DNA from: Hydrolagus colliei
Lineage: Eukaryota
Reading direction: 5' to 3'
DNA length: 64,000 nucleotides
Assembly: GCA_035084275.1 (NCBI GenBank)
Contig: CM068747.1
Coordinates: forward strand, 7,316,001 to 7,380,000
Position 1 is the stretch's first letter; each line of letters starts with the position of its first letter. Shown in pieces: positions 15,741-50,705 of the stretch. A program made the translations under genes and the position numbers. The notes beneath the pieces were generated by a model. That model ran no database searches. It was given only the letters and a program-made list of their open reading frames with translations, and was not told the DNA's origin.

Positions 15741-15754
15741 AGTTTCAGTTTCAT
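15741..15754 (+). promoter_or_regulatory. Interferon-stimulated response element (ISRE)
   Basis: AGTTTCAGTTTCAT fits AGTTTCNNTTTCNY (reverse GAAACTGAAACT), 78-91 bp upstream of the PARP ATG; inverted CCAAT (ATTGG) just upstream near 15727. Confidence 0.7.
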
Positions 15755-15831
15755 TTCCTTGTTTCTGTGTCTTCCAGAAGCTTTGCTAAACCCAGCTGCA
15801 TTTAAACAGGAAAAGAGACAAATCCTAAGCA

Positions 15832-16163
15832 ATGTCTCAAGTGACGGATCTCACAGAGGTTTGTATAAAGACCCTGTGCTCTAATCAGGGAGCTCTGGAG
15901 TATGGTACACTCTATTCAATACTCAGCACAGATTTCAAAGTTTCTGAAACCGAACTGAGTCGGGTCTTAGGAAATACTGAGGCCTTTGTTGCAGTGAACA
16001 AAACCAAGTCAGCGGGATCAAACATTGCTCCAGGTAATGTGATCATCGCCCTGACCTCGGTTAGGCTGTGCAGGAGGTATTCTAAGGCCAACTGCAACAA
16101 TTGTGGATTTCTGCACCTCTGCCGTCGCTTTGTCTATGATGACTGCAAACCAACCAATGCCAA
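15832..16163 (+). CDS. PARP12: PARP12/ZAP-like exon 1 (N-terminal helical domain, ZnF1, part of ZnF2)
   Basis: [24 protein letters not shown]...[27 protein letters not shown]; donor gtaagt at 16164. Confidence 0.9.
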
Positions 16164-19100
16164 GTAAGTCACTCACTCGTACGATAACTAGCATAGTTAC
16201 CGCAGTGTTTTTAGAGAGTTATTGATGTGGGCTTTAGACACAGGCATCTGAAACGGGCACAGAGGGAAAAGAAACAGGAGGGGGGCCCCTCAACCCCCAC
16301 CTCCCCTCCTCCCCCTTTGCAGTATTGTTGTTAGTTGGAAGCTTTGTTAAACCCAGCTCAGATCCGGAATAGTGACTACAACAACAATAACAACTTTGAT
16401 TTATATCGCGCCCTCCATGCTGGACGGCTTCACAGAGCGCTTCAAAACAACGGATGCCGGGACCGAGCCAGGGGCAGGGGTAGAAAGGTGACCAAAGGCA
16501 CGGTTGAATAGAAAGGTCTCTAGCTGGGACCTATCCAGCACCTTGGGACGTCTTCCTGATGTGAAAGACGCTATACAAATGTAATTTTGTTGTTGTTGTA
16601 GAAGTACTTAATAATAATAATAATAATCTTTGCATTTGATATAGCCCTATTCACGTCTTCTAGACATTTCAAAGCACTTCACAGAAGATACTCTGAAGTG
16701 AATTGACTTTGTGTGAGAAACATACTTTAATTGCATAATAGTTAAACAGTATCAGGGTTTAACTGTAGTTAGATGCCCAGAGGATGGGTGTGAGTGCCAT
16801 GATTTTCATAGATGATGAAATGTTGCGGCAGAAAATGGTGTGTTGCCAAGTTGATATGATATTTTCCGACAGGGATGGAGTGGTGAGGAAGTTATCACTG
16901 TCAGACATTGTTACTTGACTAAGATAACGACAATTCCTTATAAGAAAAAACACAGCGGTTAATAGGACTTGGTGAATAAGTATTAGTACTGAGTATTATT
17001 GACTGGCATTCTCAATGCATGTGTACATCACCACACCCCAATCAGATATGCACTCGCCTTTGTGATTGTGATTGTTTCATGCTTAGCAACTAACAAAAAG
17101 ATTCTTGAAAAAGTTCAAATATTTACTTCTGGGATTGTTGTTTTTCCATTTTAGGAAAATCTGCCCACAATCTCACGACACCCATTCCCCCCACAACTCT
17201 GCCATCCTGACTGCTAATGGGCTAGGAAACCTGAATACAGTGGAACTACGCCAGCTACTGCTACAGAATGATCCCGTCTTGTTGCCCGAGGTAGAAGGCC
17301 TGGATTTATGCTGAGAAATGTTAAAATCTGTACCAAATGGCAAAAAAAATTCTCTTCAAATTCAGTCCTGTTACTGATTTCCAGCTAATCGTTACGTGTC
17401 AAACACTTAAAAAGTTTAAAAAGGGCTGATGGAATGAATAGAGATTGGAGGTAATTCATTCTTAGCCGTTCTTGCAGTCAAGTGGGAAGAGAGAAGGTGG
17501 TAATGACCAAGTTGGATGATTTTTGGTTGTTTTTCTGATTTTTTTTTACCAAGGTTTGTCCATTTTACAACAAAGGAAGTGGTCCAGACGGAGCCTGTAG
17601 CTTCAAGCAAACCTGCAAAAATATTCATATCTGCCTTCCATTTATTCTGGACGTCTGTCATCTTGGCAGCCAGTGTGTACGATCGCACAGTTTCCTGGAG
17701 AGCCGGACTCTCTTCGAGAGCCGCCGATTAAACATAGAGTTGGTGTGTGATTTACCATCAGTTTATTTCAACATCTGTGGAATTAAAAGATCAAAATCTG
17801 TCAATGTCAAAGGTGGAGTTTTTTTTTCTCATTTCAATATTTTTCGTTAATAATAATTCTTGTATCGATATGCTGCATATAAAGTATGCCACAAAGTCTT
17901 TGTATAGTATGTATTTGTGGGTGAAAGCGACAGGCAATCATTGTTGTGAATTCATCAATCCTTGGCCAAGGAAGGAGAGGATTTCTCCTCTCTGGAAAAA
18001 CATATCTGAAATGTACTCGTTTCAAATATCTACCAGTTTTTATTTGGGGGAAGAGAGAAATGTCAGTGTTTGTGTGTATCTGAATCCTGTTGGCATCACT
18101 GCCTGTGATGGATATGGCAGTATTATTATTGCTCAGTTTTGACCCTGAGTTTTTATTTTTTCTCTCTGTTCAGTTCCAGAGAAGAGTACCAAAGTCAGAA
18201 AGCCTTCCAGCGATCGCAAGAGTGACTTGGACAGTGAGGAGATTTGCTTATTCTTTCTCAGGAAGCATTGTTCCTATAAAGGTACCAAATCCCCCCCCCC
18301 CCCCCCCATGTGCTGTGCCTTGTTCTTTAAGATTCACCAATTATAAATGAGTTGCAATTAGAGAGGACAGTTTGTTTTCATCAATGGCTTAATGTGAATA
18401 AATATATCTTCAATAACCTTCTGCTTCTCAGACACTGAGCACTCTCTGTGTCCTGATAAAACTCCAGGAGTGGGTCTGACTGTAGGGACATGTTTCTGCC
18501 ACTCATTGAAGTCTAAAGATCACTCACTTATCGAAAGTATTAGATCATTGACTCCTTTGGTTAATCAATAACAGGCTATGTGGCTGGATATCAGGCCATA
18601 AACAGGACTAGATATTTGAAGAAAAACACAAAATACTACTTGTAGAGTTGCTGCTGGAAATCTGAAACAAAAACAGTCACTTGGAATAATCAGCAGGTCA
18701 GGCAGCATTTATGGAGAAAGGAAAGTGGGTCAACGTTTTGGGTCCTCTGTCAGAACTGGAGCATTTTTCTTTTCACCGTTTCCTCCTCTTGCTGCCAACA
18801 TGCCCCAGTTCTGAAGAAGAGTCATGGATCCAAACCCATCCATTGACTCACTTTCTTTCTCCATAGATGCTGCCTGACCTGCTGAATGTTCCCAACGACT
18901 TCGGTTTTTGCTGGAGACTTGAAAATTCTTTTACCTCCCCCTCCGCTCACACTCCCCCCAAAAGAGGGGCACAGAAAAGTCAATGTATATAACAGACACC
19001 AAACTAAACTAATTTATAATGTTAATCAGAAGGATATTAGGATAATAGGAGTCCTGTAGCTCAATGGTTGGAGCACATGCCTTGCAAGAGACCTGGTTTG

Positions 19101-20169
19101 ATTCCAGGCAGGGTGAAACCTTGGGCAAATTTCCTTTCTCCACAATAATCCCTGATAATAATCCCTTGAGAAAAACAATTTAAAAAATTGGTCGTCTCAG
19201 TTCGCGACTGTTTGCGAGACACTGCTGTGTGCAACTGGCTGCCGTGTTTTGCCCACAAAATACACAGTCAATTAACTTTACAGTATATTCCGTGAAGCGC
19301 TTTGAGACTCTAGAAGACATGAAAAGCGATATATCAAATGCCACGATTATTATTAATATTATATTGGAAGAACTCCACTTAACGGGTAAAGGCAAATCCT
19401 GAGCAGCAATTTGGCTGGAATCTATGGTCCTGACTTGTGCAGTCCTGATTAGTTAGAGCACTCGCCTCACAAGAACAGGAGCTGGGCTTGATTGCCAGGC
19501 AGGGCAAAATGTTAGGCAAGTTTCCTTACTCCATACACCTCTGTTTCCCTAGCAGTAAGTAGGAACCCAGTTGTTAGTCAATTCATCGCTTTTCCTTGGG
19601 TAATAATCCCTTCAAAATTATTCTTAATAAATATTTATTAAAATTAATAATTTAGTCCTTCAATCCACCACTGTTTGTGGGATACTGCTGCAGGTGTAAT
19701 TGGCTGCCGTGTTTCTCCGACAAAATATATGATCAATTCATTTTATATTATATGAAGCACTTTGTGGCGTGTCAAAGACTTGATAAGGCCCTATATCAAA
19801 TACTATTGCATTTGAAATAGTATTATTATTCTACAGAATAGGCAATAGTAGTTAAGTGGAAGGCTGACTCCAAAGTATGGTGTGTGTGAAATAACCCTTG
19901 TGAAATAACCCAAATTATTTTCTAATCAGATGCGTGTAAACTGGTACATTGCAAGCTCCCCTACCAATGGCAATTTTATGAAGGACAGTGGAAGGATTTC
20001 CCAAACACGGAGGAGATAGAAAAGGACTTCTGTGATCCGTCAAACATGGTCAGGTTGGTTCTGCATGTATTTACCAGGGGAACTGAATTGTGGTTGATCG
20101 TTCTAAACTTTCAATTATTCAGTTATAATTGGCAGTTTCTGATAGATTAGTTCATGACAGTGAAAATAA

Positions 20170-20207
<38 letters not shown>

Positions 20208-23200
20208 GTTGGAAACCAAAGGTAAGAAATGAGAGAAGGATCATTTTTCGGATGATGAGCTTTCAATCAATCAATCAATCAAAACTTACATTTATATAGC
20301 GCATTTCACGTCGAGAGGACGTCCCAAGGCGCTGTACAGTCAGGTAGGGACAAGAGCAGGGATGGAGGGGTCCAGGATGAAGAAGAGTAGGAAAATTGAC
20401 TGTATATTTGAGGGCGAAACGCGGCAGCCAAATTGCGCACCGCAGTGTCCCACAAACAGTTGTGGAAATGGGGCCAGGGGAGAAAGGGGGAAAAGAGGGT
20501 AAGGGGGAAGAGGGAGGGAAAGGTTGGGTGGCGTAAAGTCAGGGAGAATGTGAGGTAAGGGGGGAGAGGGAGGGAAAGGTCGGTTGGGGTAAAGTCAGGG
20601 AGAATGTGGGGTAAGGGGGGAGAGGGAGGGAAAGATGGGTGGGGGACAAAATCAGAGAGAAATGGAGAGAAAGGGTGGTAAGAGGGAAGGGGGAAAGAAA
20701 GTAGGGAAGGGGAGGGAGGGAAAAAGAAGAAAAGGGGGGAAAGGTTAGGGGGCAGGTGGGGGATCAAACAACAAACATTAACAGAGGAAATATTCTGAGA
20801 ACCTTCATTAAAGATCAAAACTAAATACAGTCCCATGTAGCTGACTGAGATCATAGAGATTAAGAGTTTGGCATTGCTTTATACGGTATGCTATTGCTGT
20901 GAACCTGGAGCATTATCCAATGCTGTTTTTTTCTATCTTTTTACCTATCCTTTGAACCTTGTGTTATAGCTATCTTATAAGCGTTTTTGCACCTGTTTAT
21001 TTCTTGTTACAGAGGTGGATCCCCACATATTAATTTCATGACAATGACTAGCAACTCCTGCAAAGTGAGACGCCTCTCCACAGTCTCCTCCGTCACCAAA
21101 CCTGAAAGCTACATCCTCACCACAAAGTGGCTCTGGTACTGGCAGGCTGATTCTATAAAATGGATTGAATTTGGAACACAGGTGAGTTTGTGTGCTTTCT
21201 CTCTCTCTTTCACTCCTTCTCATGTCCTTTCTCCAGGAAACCAGTGGACTCCTGGGTATTGAACCCAGACCAGCGTGGGCAGCAAATAGAACTATACGAC
21301 TGCTGAGGTGTACGGATAGATAGGAAAGGGATGGATGCCATCAGTTGAACAGCTTATTAATCCACTATGTTGCTAAGTCATTTAAATGAGGAGGATGCCA
21401 AGTAGAAAACTGGTTCGAGTTTTAAAGATGGGGCGTAATGAAGGTGAGACTTCGTGGAGGTGCTTTCATTGCCTCGATTATTGGTCACACATGATGAACA
21501 TGCCCTCGTGCTGCAGTTGGACCAAAAGACCATTACCAGGTGATCAGACCAAATGATTACAGGACTTCGCCCAAAGACCCGAAGTGTCTCATGATCTTGG
21601 TAAGACTAAGAAAATGCAAGATTGGGCACAAGTTAGGAAAATTCTTAAATTTTGGAAATTCAATTTTGGAACAAGGAAATAACTTGGAAGCCAGTGATCT
21701 CAGTTTCCAAAATATTTTCAAGAAAGGCAGAATTTAATAATTTTCCAGGTTATGTGATGAACATCAGAAGTTTGTGGTCGCTAACTTAAGTTCATTAACA
21801 GTGATTGTGGGTATTTTGTCTGTCCTCGGTCAAAGTCCTTTCATATGAAAACACAGTTCCTGATCGAGACAGTTGTCCCTGCTCAGTTCACTGCTAACAC
21901 TAGTTTTGTGACTTTTACTTGACAGGAAGAGGTGTACGGAGTTTCCTCGATCACCTCTACAGACCTGGAGTGTTTGTATTTGGCTCAGAGCACAGAAACA
22001 TCGGATTTCAAAGCTGGACAATACTATTACAGATTGAACTTTAACAGTACGTTTACAGGAACCTGGGAATGCGAGCAGAGAAAATGATTTGCTTTAATCT
22101 TAGCTTTTTTTGTGAAGGGGGTGGTTAGCGGTTCATCTTTGGTCCCGGTGAGACCACCTCAGTCCTTCAACCATTAAGGTGTACCTAAACATATCCTCAG
22201 GTTGAGGAAAGTGGAGTCACTATAGAGTTTAACTTATTCCACGTTCCAGCGGTATAAGCGAGATGTTTCAAACGGGCCAGTAGAAAATTTAGCCAAAGGT
22301 TAAACATTATAAATTAGTCTGAAGAAGATCTGGGAAGAGCTATGTGAGCAGCACCTCAGGGAGGATTGTGGGGGTGGGGGAGGGGGGATTTTGGCCAAGT
22401 TTTACAAGAGGGGTGGAGGGGGTATAGTGCTGTGCATAGCACCTGCAGAGTGGGATAGGATACGGGTTTTGGGTGTGAAATCTCATGGTTTAACTTTTCA
22501 CTTTTGTGTAGAAATGGTGCAAACAAATCTGCATCTTGGAACATGCAGAGGCATCCGAAGGAGACCAAAATTTATTTCAGAACAACAAATGACAAGAGAG
22601 ATGTACAGGTATTTTCTTTCCAAATTCCCACCTGCAAGTTTTAGGAAAGGATAGAGACTGACTTTTAAAACAGCTTCTACAGTAACAATCGAAAAAGTAA
22701 GGCTCTGACTTTGGTAACTGTCCTCTGAATGAAAGGAGTTATTATTGTTGGTTATCCATCACTCAGTACTGAAATTCACATTAGGAAAGTTTTTTTTAAT
22801 TGAATTTGAGAGATGTACAGCACATTTATTAATCTGTTTGTGTTGAGATCCATCTTATGGTCAGATAGCATGCTAAGATTCTGTGATCTGTCACACATGA
22901 AGATTGTCACTGACGATCGAAGACTGCAACATTGCTGATCCAGTGAAATCATACCCCATCGCTGCCTCCTGCTTGTGATCTATGGCTCCTGCCTCCTGAG
23001 TGTTGCTTGGGCCCCCCCCGCTCCACCATCGGTGGAAAACTCTTTAAGCCACTACGCCCCAAAACTCTGCAACATTCTTCCTCTATCCCTGCACCTTGCC
23101 CCTTCTTTCACCATCTTCAGGTTGCGCGTAAAGACCTTATTCAACCGCGCCTATGGTCCCCCTGACTCGGCATTGTGCTCTGCCACTGTCCAGTGCTCTG

Positions 23201-25290
23201 GAACGCTACCCTGCATGAGAGACGCCATATAAATGCGAGTTGTTGTTTAACAACTCTCCTTTTACAGCAAAGACCTGCCTGGACAAGTCAAGGACAACTC
23301 CAAGACAAAACAAAGCAAGACACCTCCAACATACTGGGAACTGAAAGATCAGCCTGACAATGGATATAAGGTAAAGTACTTTAGTTGCTTAAATATCAGA
23401 ATTTATACAATAGCTACTGTTCCAAGGAGATCAAATGAGTTCCAAACAACTGGGTTCTTAATTATGCTCCTATGTGAGCCTCCTTCCATTAAATTTTTTA
23501 ATTATTTTGTATCTTCACATGAGACCTTTCACAAATGAACACCATGTGTTTTCACCCGGTAGCTATAAAACTCTCTAGTAGAGTTCTTTAAAGTGAGCCA
23601 AATTTGTACCTCAAGCTGAATTTGTTCTTCCCCCCACCCCCCACAACCCTAACCCATAAATACTGAGACCAATTGATTGTCACCACCACATTGACACTCT
23701 GACACTCATTACAACATGGAGCTTCCTGGTCTGTTTGAGTTGGTACCACATCATATTGCACTTTCACATTGTCAGCCAGACAAATTACACTCATTTTATG
23801 TATGATTTAGTGCAGTACTGATCCATACAATCAGGAAAGTCGTTTAGAAAAAAAGAGATTTGGGTTTAATTTACTCCAGTTATTTTTTCACATTTGGTAT
23901 GTTTTGAACATTCTTGACAATGCTGGGTAATTGTAACTGAGCTGGTCTCTCTGCAGCTCGTTCAGCTCCAGGCGTCTTCGGACGAATACACCCAAGTGGA
24001 GTCTCTCTTCAAGAGGTCTATGAGCGACTGCGCCATCCGAAAAATTGAAAGAATCCAAAACTTGTCTCTTTGGGAAGTTTATCAATGGTTTGTAGTCTTC
24101 ACATCGTAAGGAAATTGCTTTTTTTTTGTCTCTCCAAAAAAGGTGAAGTGGTGCATGTTCGTAGATCTGTTGGAAGAAGAGCAGAGGAACTGAAATGGTC
24201 TCTTGTCCAAATAACCTAATTATAGATTCATGCAACTCAGTTAGGATCAAGTCACTTCAAGTTAATTCAAAATAAGAAGAGATTGATGTAAAAAGCTTCT
24301 TTATACTATAGAACCTCAGGTAAGGGAACATGGTTGAAAGATTTGACAGGGAAGAACTAGGTGCAGAATGGCAGTGACGCCAGTGACCTTCCCTCCATGG
24401 TGTAGAGGCAGCTTTGCGTTGATAAAAAGTCAAAATCAGCAATTAAACCGTTACATGAGATGAAGTACTGCACTACAAAGGAGGTATTGGAGAAGCCCAG
24501 AAATGTTTTCAACTGGAAAAGAGATGATTGAGGGTTAAGCAATGGACCAAATGACCTCCTATGCTGGAATTTTTAAAATGTGTTGTATTTTGCATGAGTT
24601 TTATTTTGTTGCTGACTGTGAGTACATAGAGCAGTCACCATATTGTCCATTTGTTCTATAAACACAGGCAGAAGGAGCAGATGAAGAAGAAGAGTGGGAA
24701 AGAGGTGGCTGAGCAAATGCTTTTCCATGGCACAAAGGACTCACCTCTCACTGTGGTCTGCAAGGAGAACTTTGACTGGAGAACCTGTGGAATGCATGGG
24801 GACGGATTTGGAAAAGGTACCAAATGTGTGAATGAAATAGTCAATAAAAAAAAATTCTTGGGAGATTCAAGCTAAAATTAAAATAGCCAATTAATTTCTA
24901 AAATTAATTATTTATCAGTTAAAGCTACAGTTTGACTGAGAACGCCTATTTACCAGTTTATTTTGTGCATTTCTACGCAAATTTAAAAATAAGTTTTTTT
25001 TGCCCTTAGGAAACTACTTTGCCGTGAATGCGCTACATGCTGATAAGAATTCCCTGTCTCTGGCATCCTCAAAGACCATGTATCTTGCAAAGGTTTTGGT
25101 TGGAGAGTATACCCAGGGAAAGGTGACCTTCTGCCGGCCTCCTTCAAAAGATGGTACACTCATCAACTTGTACGACAGTTGCACTGACAATGTGGCTGTG
25201 CCATCTCTCTTTGTCATATTTGATAAACACCAGATCTACCCTGAGTATGTAATAGAATATTATGGTTCACAAAAATGCATAATTATTTGA
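15832..25290 (+). CDS. PARP12: PARP12/ZC3HAV1(ZAP)-family CCCH zinc-finger, WWE, ADP-ribosyltransferase-domain protein, 669 aa: join(15832..16163,17155..17290,17554..17812,18174..18281,19930..20053,21013..21181,21926..22046,22512..22608,23268..23370,23957..24087,24668..24816,25010..25290)
   Basis: 12 exons with GT-AG introns sum to 2010 nt with consistent phases and no internal stop. Motifs: CCCH fingers, [20 protein letters not shown]1, [16 protein letters not shown]2, [50 protein letters not shown]. The symbol denotes the family; PARP12 versus ZC3HAV1 orthology is uncertain. Confidence 0.92.
17155..17290 (+). CDS. PARP12: PARP12/ZAP-like exon 2
   Basis: [45 protein letters not shown]. Confidence 0.88.
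17554..17812 (+). CDS. PARP12: PARP12/ZAP-like exon 3 (ZnF3, ZnF4)
   Basis: [45 protein letters not shown]... Confidence 0.88.
18174..18281 (+). CDS. PARP12: PARP12/ZAP-like exon 4 (linker, start of ZnF5)
   Basis: [36 protein letters not shown]. Confidence 0.85.
18650..18910. mobile_element. Penelope-type inverted-repeat element in PARP intron 4
   Basis: Arms about 18668-18759 and 18805-18910 are reverse complements (CAGCAGGTCAGGCAGCAT / ATGCTGCCTGACCTGCTG). Family assignment is from recalled shark Penelope terminal sequences. Confidence 0.6.
19048..19355 (+). mobile_element. tRNA-derived SINE, short form
   Basis: GGAGTCCTGTAGCTCAATGGTT head; tail GCGCTTTGAGACTCTAGAAGACATGAAAAGCG. Confidence 0.8.
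19441..19830 (+). mobile_element. tRNA-derived SINE, long form
   Basis: Same family body and tail. Confidence 0.75.
19930..20053 (+). CDS. PARP12: PARP12/ZAP-like exon 5 (end of ZnF5, WWE1)
   Basis: [42 protein letters not shown]. Confidence 0.88.
20172..20201. repeat. (GA)n microsatellite
   Basis: Direct observation. Confidence 0.9.
20264..20765 (-). mobile_element. Chimeric L2-tail/SINE-body fragment with a (TTGA)n end and an adjacent G-rich purine tandem array
   Basis: (TCAA)n, then B-family tail, then SINE body (20390-20470), then roughly 55-bp repeats GGGAGGGAAAGGT..GTAAAGTCAGGGAGAATGTG..GTAAGGGGGGAGA. Confidence 0.65.
21013..21181 (+). CDS. PARP12: PARP12/ZAP-like exon 6 (WWE1 to WWE2)
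   Basis: [56 protein letters not shown]; donor gtgagt. Confidence 0.9.
21926..22046 (+). CDS. PARP12: PARP12/ZAP-like exon 7 (WWE2)
   Basis: [40 protein letters not shown]. Confidence 0.88.
22512..22608 (+). CDS. PARP12: PARP12/ZAP-like exon 8 (end of WWE2)
   Basis: [32 protein letters not shown]. Confidence 0.88.
22930..23248 (+). mobile_element. L2-type LINE 3' fragment just upstream of PARP exon 9
   Basis: Tail GTGCTCTGGAACGCTACCCTGCATGAGAGACGCCATATAAATGCGAGTTGTTG. Confidence 0.7.
23268..23370 (+). CDS. PARP12: PARP12/ZAP-like exon 9
   Basis: [34 protein letters not shown]; the PxxW motif precedes the ART domain. Confidence 0.82.
23957..24087 (+). CDS. PARP12: PARP12/ZAP-like exon 10 (ART domain)
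   Basis: [44 protein letters not shown]. Confidence 0.9.
24668..24816 (+). CDS. PARP12: PARP12/ZAP-like exon 11 (ART domain, HGT motif)
   Basis: [49 protein letters not shown]. Confidence 0.92.
25010..25290 (+). CDS. PARP12: PARP12/ZAP-like exon 12 (end of ART domain, CaaX)
   Basis: [15 protein letters not shown]...[11 protein letters not shown]...[39 protein letters not shown]. Confidence 0.93.
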
Positions 25291-25653: not shown

Positions 25654-25659
25654 AATAAA
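25654..25659 (+). terminator. Candidate polyadenylation signal of the PARP gene
   Basis: AATAAA about 365 bp after the TGA, followed by T-rich sequence. Confidence 0.55.
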
Positions 25660-44581: not shown

Positions 44582-45412
44582 TCAAAGTACAGTACTGATA
44601 GTGTCAAACTCCTTGGTGATTTGCGTACTGGGCAGTGACTTAAGGTACTCTAGGTGGCGTCTGGCATCCTCCTGGTTCTGACGCACATAGTACACAATGT
44701 AGGAGATGACCATAGTAAACCAGCCAAACATGGTGATGAACATGGCTATGTCCGTTGTCTTCTGGTGAATGTTGCAGAAGTTGATCCCTGAGTTGAGCAC
44801 CTGGATCAGGGGTTTGCCTGTGTACTCATCCTGCACGGAGGACTGACAGATAAACTCATTGACGGTTTCTGGGTCCAGGGTCAATTCCTCAATGACCTGT
44901 TGGAGCAAACACTCACAGTGCCATGGATTGTCAGAGAGTCGGATCTTTGCTTTAATTTTACTGAAGACTTCCTTTGGTACACTCTGGATGTTATTACTCG
45001 AAAGATCCAGCATTTTAAGACCCTCGGAGATTCCTCGAAATGCTCCAATATCAATTAACTCAATGGCGTTCTTAGACAAATCCAGTTCTTTGAGTAAGTA
45101 CAGGTCCTTGAAGGCATTGTTGGGTATTTTGGTTATCATGTTGGAGTCCAGGCGCAGTGTCACGGTGTCCGCTGGGATGTCTGCTGGAATTTCCTTCAAA
45201 TTTTTATCAGTGCACTGCACAAACTTCATCCCATTTTTATCCAGACACTTACAGCTTTTGGGGCATGAAGCGGTGACCACCTGAAGGAAAGGGAGGAGGA
45301 GCAGCAAAGTGCCCAAAGCCATCGAGTGGGCAACCTTCAGCCGTATCCATGTCAAGCCTGTCCACAACATGGTAAAACACTTCTCAGTCCTGCCCACAGA
45401 ATGACTGTCCAT
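44582..45412 (-). CDS. LRRC3: Leucine-rich repeat-containing protein 3 (signal peptide, LRRNT, LRRs, LRRCT, TM, short tail); single coding exon
   Basis: 276-aa ORF with CPKSCKC, LxLxxN repeats, KIRLSDNPWHCEC, TTDIAMFITMFGWFTMVISYIVYYVRQNQEDARRHLEYLKSLPS. KIRLS and LDPETV resemble LRRC3 more than LRRC3B. A splice acceptor (ttcacag) lies at 45469-45470. The true start may be a downstream Met. Confidence 0.9.
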   Translation of the reverse strand: MDSHSVGRTEKCFTMLWTGLTWIRLKVAHSMALGTLLLLLPFLQVVTASCPKSCKCLDKNGMKFVQCTDKNLKEIPADIPADTVTLRLDSNMITKIPNNAFKDLYLLKELDLSKNAIELIDIGAFRGISEGLKMLDLSSNNIQSVPKEVFSKIKAKIRLSDNPWHCECLLQQVIEELTLDPETVNEFICQSSVQDEYTGKPLIQVLNSGINFCNIHQKTTDIAMFITMFGWFTMVISYIVYYVRQNQEDARRHLEYLKSLPSTQITKEFDTISTVL

Positions 45413-49853: not shown

Positions 49854-50705
49854 CATAAGAACATAAGAAAATATCAAATAGGAACAGGAGTAGGCTATTT
49901 GGCCCCTCAAGCCTGCCCCACCATTTAATAAATGCCTGATCTTCTAACCTAATTCCATTTACCCGCCCTATTCCCATATCCCTTAATCTGTCTATGCTTT
50001 AGAAATCTATCAATCTCAGCCTTGGATATGTTCACGTACTGAGCATCCAGAGCCTTCTGGGGTAGAGAATTCCATAAATTCACTCTGAGTGAAGAAATGT
50101 TTCCTCAACTCTGATCGAAAAGGTTGAGCATTAATCTTGAGACTATGACCGCTTGTTTTAGTTTCTCCTATCAAGGGAAACAGTCTCACACTGTCTACTT
50201 GCTCAAGTCTCTTAAGAATCTTATAGGTTTCTATAAGATCACCCCTAATTCTTCTATATTCAAGAGAATATAGGTCTAGTTTACTCAACCTTTCCTCATA
50301 GGTCAAATTCCTCATCCCAGGAACCAACCTAGTGAATCTACGCTGCACACCTTCTAAGGCGAGTATGTCCTTTCTTAAATAAGGAGACCAAAACTGCACA
50401 CAATGTTCTAGGTGCGGTCTCACCAAGGCCCTGTACAATTGCAGCAAGAGTTCCCTACTCTTGTACTCTAATCCTTTTGCAATGAACGCCAATATGCCAT
50501 TAGTCTTCCCAGTTGCTTGCTGTACCTGCATACTAACTTTTTGTGACTGGTGTACAAGAACACCCAAATCTCTCTGAACACTAACACTACCTTGTCTCTC
50601 CCCCTCTAGAAAATAATCCGCTTTTCTATTTTTACTACCCAGGTGAACAACTTCACACTTCCCCACATTATACTCCATCTGCCGTCTACTTTCCCACTCA
50701 CTTAG
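49854..50705 (-). mobile_element. Relatively young 5'-truncated CR1 LINE
   Basis: 220-aa ORF 50016-50678 (KCEVVHLG, RDLGVLV, LYRALVRPHLEHCVQFWSP, RRIRGDLIETYKI); 3' (TTCTTATG)n terminal repeat. Confidence 0.92.

Follow-up and report, generated by a model that had tools for sequence, protein, structure and literature searches.

A chimaera PARP12 paralogue that ends in a CaaX motif and groups apart from the antiviral protein ZAP

Introduction

Is the membrane-anchored form of the antiviral protein ZAP (ZC3HAV1/PARP13) older than has been assumed? The question is raised by a gene of the chimaera Hydrolagus colliei, at 15832..25290 on the forward strand of a 64,000-nucleotide stretch of DNA (positions 7,316,001 to 7,380,000 of contig CM068747.1, assembly GCA_035084275.1), which we call the window. 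The original prediction, made from the sequence alone, described an intact gene of the PARP12 type with three hallmarks of ZAP-L: a C-terminal CaaX motif, the residues KN in the nicotinamide pocket of the ADP-ribosyltransferase (ART) domain, and an upstream interferon-stimulated response element (ISRE). It proposed that either the ZAP branch is older than assumed or a PARP12 copy had converged on the same form. Sequence comparison identifies this gene as the chimaera member of a known PARP12 orthologue group of cartilaginous fish, one of three such paralogues, and it is not ZAP. That the gene belongs to this family was already known. What is new is modest but real: a swap of the protein's tail that is private to this lineage, and two routes by which the catalytic pocket has decayed.

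Results

The gene is intact

The gene has 12 exons and 11 introns, all 11 of them GT-AG, and encodes a frame of 669 amino acids that has no internal stop and ends in CIII. In tblastn, the elephant shark (C. milii) protein XP_007889001 matches 12 of 12 exons, with 78% identity over 660 amino acids; the exon chain comes from this homology and not from RNA. The translation contains five CCCH fingers (C80/C88/C91/H95, C97/C105/C114/H118, C158/C171/C177/H181, C183/C191/C197/H201, and C267/C275/C281/H285), and the Pfam domains of the orthologue are WH_PARP12, zf-CCCH_PARP12, WWE_4, WWE, and PARP. So the predicted architecture of five CCCH fingers, two WWE domains, and an ART domain is borne out. In PMC8102003, the PARP12/ZAP family is also defined by five CCCH fingers together with WWE domains and a PARP-like domain.

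The CaaX ending is confirmed by a second public data set, in which one contig spans 24860-25900 and includes the whole last exon. Of this contig's differences, six of the seven substitutions and the two indels are listed, and all of these fall outside the coding part of the last exon. Because the contig agrees across that part, the CaaX ending is not an assembly error. The second data set may represent the other haplotype of the same animal. (As a side observation, the differences listed for run X1 include four exonic variants, at 17677, 19958, 20034, and 23334, which correspond to V198I, D314N, and two silent changes.)

The gene belongs to a PARP12 paralogue of cartilaginous fish

A search with the last exon found two relatives, the C. 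milii protein and a white shark protein named "PARP12-like." A search with XP_007889001 gave 900 matches, and the ten top chondrichthyan proteins among the best 120, which are the matches listed, form one orthologue group, which we call clade A. A member of clade A is already annotated in at least 14 named species of cartilaginous fish. Simon et al. (2025) described three lineage-specific PARP12 paralogues in cartilaginous fish (PMC12204182), and the alignment of that paper includes XP_007889001 and whale shark XP_048454865 as PARP12. Rays have copies of the other two paralogues, B and C, and none of the ray or skate proteins among the 120 matches listed is in clade A; it is possible that clade A was lost in batoids.

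There is indeed a separate canonical PARP12 in the genome of H. colliei. This gene, copy B, is 330 kb away on the same contig (C14:7.674-7.687 Mb), reads FHGT and SHKY in its ART domain, and ends in IEYIAK. A third and divergent gene, copy C, is at C13:33.34-33.36 Mb (33343621-33356218). In both chimaeras, paralogue C has a cysteine at the position of the histidine of the catalytic triad.

We built three trees: a FastTree of 65 rows, an IQ-TREE (LG+G4) of 37 of those rows, and a quick-search tree of the same 37 rows under the C20 mixture. The 28 rows that were dropped were further members of groups already represented, an unassigned toad protein, and a long-branched starfish protein. PARP12 from hagfish and lamprey was the outgroup, and PARP11 and TIPARP were left out. 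In the IQ-TREE, the window protein is sister to the C. milii protein with support of 100/100, and the other two trees place it the same way. Clade A has support of 100/100, and clade A with the canonical paralogue B has 96/94. The tetrapod ZAPs form a clade of their own, at 100/99. The terminal branch of the window protein is 0.15, as compared to 0.10 for elephant shark.

Constraining clade A to group with ZAP was rejected by the approximately unbiased (AU) test (p = 0.0014), as was grouping the window gene alone with ZAP (p = 1e-69). The deeper nodes among the PARP12 and ZAP groups are weakly supported in the IQ-TREE and C20 trees. Neither the published grouping of ZAP, tetrapod PARP12, and lungfish (AU p = 0.335) nor a grouping of paralogue C, ZAP, and lungfish (p = 0.108) was rejected. 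The lungfish protein that Simon et al. named ZAP is with clade C in the IQ-TREE and C20 trees and with ZAP in FastTree.

Features that distinguish ZAP are absent

Exon 1 encodes the PARP12-type winged helix and has no match to HTH_53 at E ≤ 0.05. The scores of ZAPs for HTH_53 are 9e-17 in turtle and 3e-31 in bat; newt ZAP scores only weakly (E = 9e-4), so HTH_53 discriminates less well in amphibians. At the columns of human ZAP residues K89, Y98, K107, Y108, and F144, the window protein has R, P, P, Q, and V. We take F144 to be a further position of human ZAP that contacts CpG. Tyr or Phe occupies the Y108 position in all seven of the well-aligned ZAP rows, other than an aberrant Sarcophilus model. 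K89, Y98, K107, and Y108 are given as the CpG-contact residues of human ZAP in PMC8102003. Identity by domain is 37/44/49% with bat PARP12, 29/42/38% with bat ZAP, and 33/48/53% with turtle ZAP; given the turtle figures, raw identity over the two C-terminal parts cannot tell PARP12 from ZAP.

The genes near the window gene are of the KH, LRR, UCH, and Milton/HAP1 families, and a 5MP/BZW gene adjoins copy B. Copy C sits among IQSEC, DENND11, and SLC13 genes, 0.45 Mb from the sole match to MKRN1_C and 1.2 Mb from the sole KIAA1549-family locus that we found. We presume that DENND11, MKRN1_C, and KIAA1549-family genes flank human ZAP and PARP12 (KIAA1549 and KIAA1549L were not told apart here). 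If we have the human gene order right, then the window gene lies outside the neighbourhood of the KIAA1549-PARP12-MKRN1 type, and those families surround copy C instead. Searches for UBN_AB (matches on contigs C25 and C43) and JHD (matches at C13:42.2 Mb and on C20) did not add any further ZAP-neighbour gene near any of the paralogues.

The tail differs from that of all the orthologues seen

In 10 of 10 orthologue representatives from clade A, the protein ends in KVGF(F/L/M)xW...SG and has no CaaX. This tail is also found in 11 of 13 further members of the cluster; of the other two, one is a truncated isoform and one a 40-aa fragment that is unrelated. Where the orthologues have a 22-residue amphipathic tail, the window protein has YGSQKCIII. 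The orthologues' tails have hydrophobic moments of 0.30-0.59 (nine were computed), and the AlphaFold model of XP_007889001 has a helix at 662-670, at modest confidence (pLDDT, the model's own confidence score, is about 64).

A six-frame profile scan that covered 224 kb of DNA surrounding the gene found no exon for the conserved tail: the best downstream score on the plus strand was 24.5, as compared to 53-76 for true tails. Short-word tblastn with the tail gave only chance matches within the window. Nor was there a detectable remnant left by a frameshift, as the back-translated C. milii tail matched the 80 nt after IEY at background level (p = 0.215 with 400 windows and p = 0.20 with 300 shuffles). 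A terminal C[VIL][VIL]X is found by chance at 95 of 38,790 random frame ends (0.24%). It seems likely, from these comparisons, that the CaaX arose late, in one chimaera lineage, and replaced a hydrophobic tail as the membrane tether. Literature searches aimed at a chondrichthyan PARP12 with a CaaX, which mostly did not cover subscription journals, found no published account of one.

Because CaaX endings are widespread across the PARP12 family, they are not diagnostic of ZAP. A CaaX is present in 2 of 116 complete proteins among the matches listed for XP_007889001, and C-x-[VIL]-X in 47 of 109 complete 50%-representatives that reach the end of the ART domain, many of which are ZAPs. Outside of tetrapods, family members with a CaaX include those of reedfish (XP_051785376), a mormyrid (XP_023671068), spiny eel, paddlefish (P0084), milkfish (P0110), Acanthaster (XP_022087972), and Montipora (XP_068694759). 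The CaaX state requires at least four changes on the 37-row tree, and, instead of being a gain in tetrapods, it may go back to the ancestor of the family or have arisen more than once.

Some of these relatives deserve comment in their own right. The proteins from the coral Montipora (P0221) and the starfish Acanthaster (P0205) end in CSVM and CSIQ, and the milkfish protein retains the triad histidine. A ray-finned lineage of PARP12 with CaaX (reedfish P0139 and mormyrid P0143) branches as the sister of tetrapod ZAP in the IQ-TREE and C20 trees, with support that is weak (84/60 and 82), and not in FastTree. This lineage must be older than the teleosts, because it is present in reedfish. If an older membrane-anchored branch of ZAP exists, then this lineage is a better candidate for it than the window gene is.

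The pocket has changed by different routes in chimaeras and sharks

At the nicotinamide pocket, the window protein reads HADKN, as compared to YFAKDAIYSHKN (YSHKN) in human ZAP and YFARDAAYSHHY (YSHHY) in human PARP12; the human motifs given in the original prediction are right. The title of PDB entry 4x52 names the position of the human ZAP asparagine as N830, and a text search of the literature found no paper on that position. Our account of the pocket draws on general background, on that title, and on a review (PMC9189837), in which mono-ART pockets use a nicotinamide-binding Ser and a second Tyr, H-Y-L is the active mono-ART type of triad (PARP14/15), and human ZAP has Y-Y-V.

The triad of the window protein, H547-Y579-L643, is intact. 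The pocket Ser is Ala in 10 of 10 clade A rows. The stacking Tyr is Asn in both of the chimaeras, and Tyr or Phe is kept in 8 of 8 sharks; the triad His is kept in both of the chimaeras and is Tyr or Cys in all eight sharks. The shark proteins (P0002-P0010) read FYGW (FCGW in Mustelus) instead of FHGT, which is the same His-to-Tyr change as in human ZAP. Also, a Tyr-to-His change just before A587 is private to the window protein. Because the pocket Ser and the stacking Tyr are lost, the window protein's ADP-ribosyltransferase activity is probably low. On this alignment, the catalytic pocket has decayed by different routes in chimaeras and in sharks, and the shark proteins of clade A are likely to be PARP12 pseudo-enzymes with a conserved amphipathic tail.

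The resemblance to the KN of human ZAP does not reflect common ancestry. Of 120 sauropsid ZAPs, 117 keep the His, 113 keep the Tyr, and none has Asn (85 end in CaaX); among all of the ZAPs in our set, only two, both therian, have Asn at this position. So KN is not ancestral to ZAP, and the match is convergent.

The promoter element is common to the paralogues

The ISRE was also correctly recognised. Triple GAAA sites of this type occur 6 times in 464 kb of DNA, so about 0.002 are expected per 150 nt, and the site upstream of the gene is beyond chance. The same element is present 83-122 nt upstream in all three of the PARP12 paralogues (A, B, and C) of this genome, so it is not diagnostic of ZAP. 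According to 10.1101/693333, parp12 is an ancestral interferon-stimulated gene (ISG) in zebrafish and human.

Discussion

The window gene is orthologous to XP_007889001 and is not a ZAP, as the comparisons above show. We think it probable that it encodes an interferon-induced and membrane-tethered variant of PARP12 with weak or no ART activity, and that in this lineage alone a prenylation signal has taken the place of the ancestral hydrophobic tail. Under this reading, IRF or ISGF3 would bind the ISRE and induce the gene, as for its two paralogues. C666 would be prenylated, probably with geranylgeranyl rather than with farnesyl as for the CVIS of ZAP, because CIII fits the consensus of geranylgeranyltransferase I (Caa[L/F/I/M/V]; PMC11304957). 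The prenyl anchor would retain the protein on endomembranes, and in sharks and elephant shark the amphipathic helix probably does the same. Without the Ser and the stacking Tyr, the ART pocket would make the protein more of a scaffold than an enzyme, with ADP-ribose bound through ZnF5-WWE1-WWE2. In the orthologue, the positions of the WWE2 motif line up with the central domain of human ZAP, and this alignment, with the residues that we take to form the ADP-ribose pocket of WWE2, suggests ADP-ribose binding. We would not expect the protein to select CpG-rich RNA in the way that human ZAP does. In human cells, human PARP12 with a CaaX was inactive on HIV-1 unless it was given the RNA-binding domain of ZAP (PMC8568172), and by analogy, CpG-directed restriction by the window protein is unlikely.

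It may help to compare the protein to its known relatives. With the other clade A proteins, it shares the domain layout, the 12 exons (in C. milii), and the Ser-to-Ala change, and with C. milii only it shares the Asn at the stacking-Tyr position; in contrast to them, it lacks the KVGFxxW tail, and the sharks have lost the triad His but not the Tyr. It resembles human PARP12 (ARTD12) in its five CCCH fingers, two WWE domains, ART domain, short linker, H-Y-hydrophobic triad, and membership in an interferon-inducible family. Human PARP12 is the best sequence match of the last exon (89.6 bits) and the best fold match of the orthologue's model. Unlike human PARP12, the window protein has a CaaX, has lost the pocket Ser and Tyr, and has no aromatic residue at the Y108-equivalent position. 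It is like ZAP-L in the CaaX, the Asn at the N830 position, and the ISG-type promoter, and it differs in its clade, in HTH_53, in the CpG-contact residues, in its triad (H-Y-L, not Y-Y-V), in the prenyl group to which the final isoleucine points, and in keeping an acceptor-side loop that is absent from human ZAP. Finally, the ray-finned and invertebrate relatives with CaaX share the PARP12-family architecture and the CaaX end outside of tetrapods, but they lie on other branches of the tree, and in most of them the pocket is intact and the C-terminus is extended by a long stretch.

What other explanations might there be? That the gene is a true orthologue of ZAP, so that ZAP would date to the origin of jawed vertebrates, draws on a superficial likeness to human ZAP at the KN pocket and in the final residues, and on the weak deep nodes. 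Against this stand both of the AU tests, the absence of HTH_53, the neighbouring genes (with the presumed ZAP/PARP12 neighbourhood around paralogue C on another contig), and the His and Tyr of the sauropsid ZAPs. We regard this explanation as largely refuted and give it almost no credence; the claim that this gene makes the ZAP branch older is also contradicted by the RNA-contact residues. A very improbable alternative, which arises because the last exon was called from homology, is that the mRNA ends elsewhere, with a distant or diverged last exon that supplies the conserved tail and with CIII as read-through into an intron. But there is no tail-like exon in 155 kb downstream, a stretch that already crosses further genes. 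The point of divergence lacks a strong donor, and 364 nt past the stop there is an AATAAA.

The remaining two explanations accept that the gene is a PARP12. The CaaX could be an accident: the tail was lost recently, the new end happens to read CIII, and the motif is not under selection in what is just an ordinary duplicate, or one in slow decay. Its absence from all ten orthologue representatives, the somewhat longer terminal branch, and the private change beside A587 would fit with this, but such endings are rare by chance, the exons, splice sites, zinc ligands, and ISRE are all intact, and the family has used CaaX repeatedly. We consider an accident unlikely. Full convergence on ZAP-L, as a prenylated and catalytically dead RNA-binding restriction factor that acts by decay of viral RNA or a block of its translation, strikes us as more doubtful still. 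The CaaX, the Asn, the five intact fingers, and the ISRE are what one would expect, and the shark orthologues independently carry the triad change of human ZAP; but the residues that contact CpG are absent, among them the aromatic at Y108, and the HIV-1 result with PARP12 argues against it. Convergence from a PARP12 copy, the second of the two original proposals, fits, but less strongly than it was put: none of the orthologues seen has the CaaX, only elephant shark shares the Asn, the triad remains H-Y-L, all three PARP12 paralogues have the ISRE, and in human cells PARP12 with an added CaaX showed no ZAP-like activity (PMC8568172). It had been said that nesting with ordinary fish PARP12s that share the CaaX and KN would count against a ZAP-like factor. 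The protein does nest in a chondrichthyan PARP12 clade, but none of the ten orthologues has the CaaX and only elephant shark has the Asn.

Several points weigh against our preferred reading of a tethered and weakly active or inactive PARP12. The exon chain, and the last exon in particular, rest on homology rather than on RNA. A frameshift remnant that would account for the loss of the old tail is undetectable (p of about 0.2). A chance CaaX is possible at the rate given above, and we examined the motif because the original prediction had flagged it. Our sample of clade A from chimaeras is the window protein and C. milii, so the CaaX we call "private" could be that of a whole family or of just one species. 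That the ancestral tail binds membranes is a prediction from its composition only. And because H547-Y579-L643 is of the active mono-ART type, the loss of catalysis is uncertain.

More speculatively, the anchor of PARP12 and ZAP could be an exchangeable module, and one chimaera lineage could have independently built the combination found in ZAP-L: a prenylated, dead, interferon-induced copy that restricts viruses at endomembranes without recognising CpG. Sharks would have made a pseudo-enzyme of the same paralogue by another mutation and with an amphipathic helix. We hold this idea tentatively and would not bet on it. If it is true, then these proteins are a natural experiment on why selection favours a dead ART domain in company with a membrane tether. 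And if CIII is prenylated and kept by selection, then the helix-tailed and CaaX-tailed proteins, which are 78% identical, would make a pair for testing whether tethering is a conserved need of the antiviral proteins of the PARP12 family. Either way, this gene does not move the origin of ZAP. A more general caution is that ZAP is not diagnosed by a CaaX, by an Asn in the pocket of the ART domain, or by an ISRE, as comparisons across the family, to sauropsid ZAPs, and to the paralogues' promoters indicate, and that within this family the CaaX extends beyond tetrapods.

Features of the locus

Table 1. Features of the PARP12-type gene, in window coordinates
Feature	Position	Strand	Basis
ISRE-type element of three GAAA repeats, 74-91 nt before the ATG	15741..15758	+	sequence
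Exon 1: PARP12-type winged helix, ZnF1 (zinc finger 1), first half of ZnF2	15832..16163	+	WH_PARP12 E=1.5e-13
Exon 2: end of ZnF2, P115/Q116 at ZAP K107/Y108, V152 at ZAP F144	17155..17290	+	translation, alignment
Exon 3: ZnF3 and ZnF4	17554..17812	+	translation, tblastn, Pfam
Exon 4: short linker, start of ZnF5	18174..18281	+	translation, tblastn
Exon 5: end of ZnF5, WWE1	19930..20053	+	translation, tblastn
Exon 6: end of WWE1, start of WWE2	21013..21181	+	translation, tblastn
Exon 7: WWE2	21926..22046	+	translation, tblastn
Exon 8: end of WWE2	22512..22608	+	translation, tblastn
Exon 9: linker to ART domain	23268..23370	+	translation, tblastn
Exon 10: ART domain	23957..24087	+	translation, tblastn
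Exon 11: ART domain, intact triad His H547 (FHGT)	24668..24816	+	translation, Pfam, alignment
Exon 12, coding part: triad Y579 and L643, altered pocket A587 and N590, CIII (C666), stop	25010..25290	+	alignment, second data set
AATAAA, candidate polyadenylation signal, 364 nt past stop	25654..25659	+	function inferred

Elsewhere in the window, a single-exon gene of the LRRC3 type (44582-45412, minus strand, 276 aa) encodes a signal peptide, an LRRNT, LRRs, and one membrane span. A histone H2B-like sequence between the UCH and Milton/HAP1 genes (L039:2226-2761, minus strand) is split over several frames and is probably a pseudogene. There is also an open frame of 229 aa at 50019-50705 of the window (minus strand), which resembles the C-terminal part of ORF2 of long interspersed elements (LINEs) of the CR1/L2 type. 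And at C14:13.10-13.14 Mb and 20.12-20.18 Mb there are two clusters, each with three further PARP last exons that resemble the PARP14/15/9 type.

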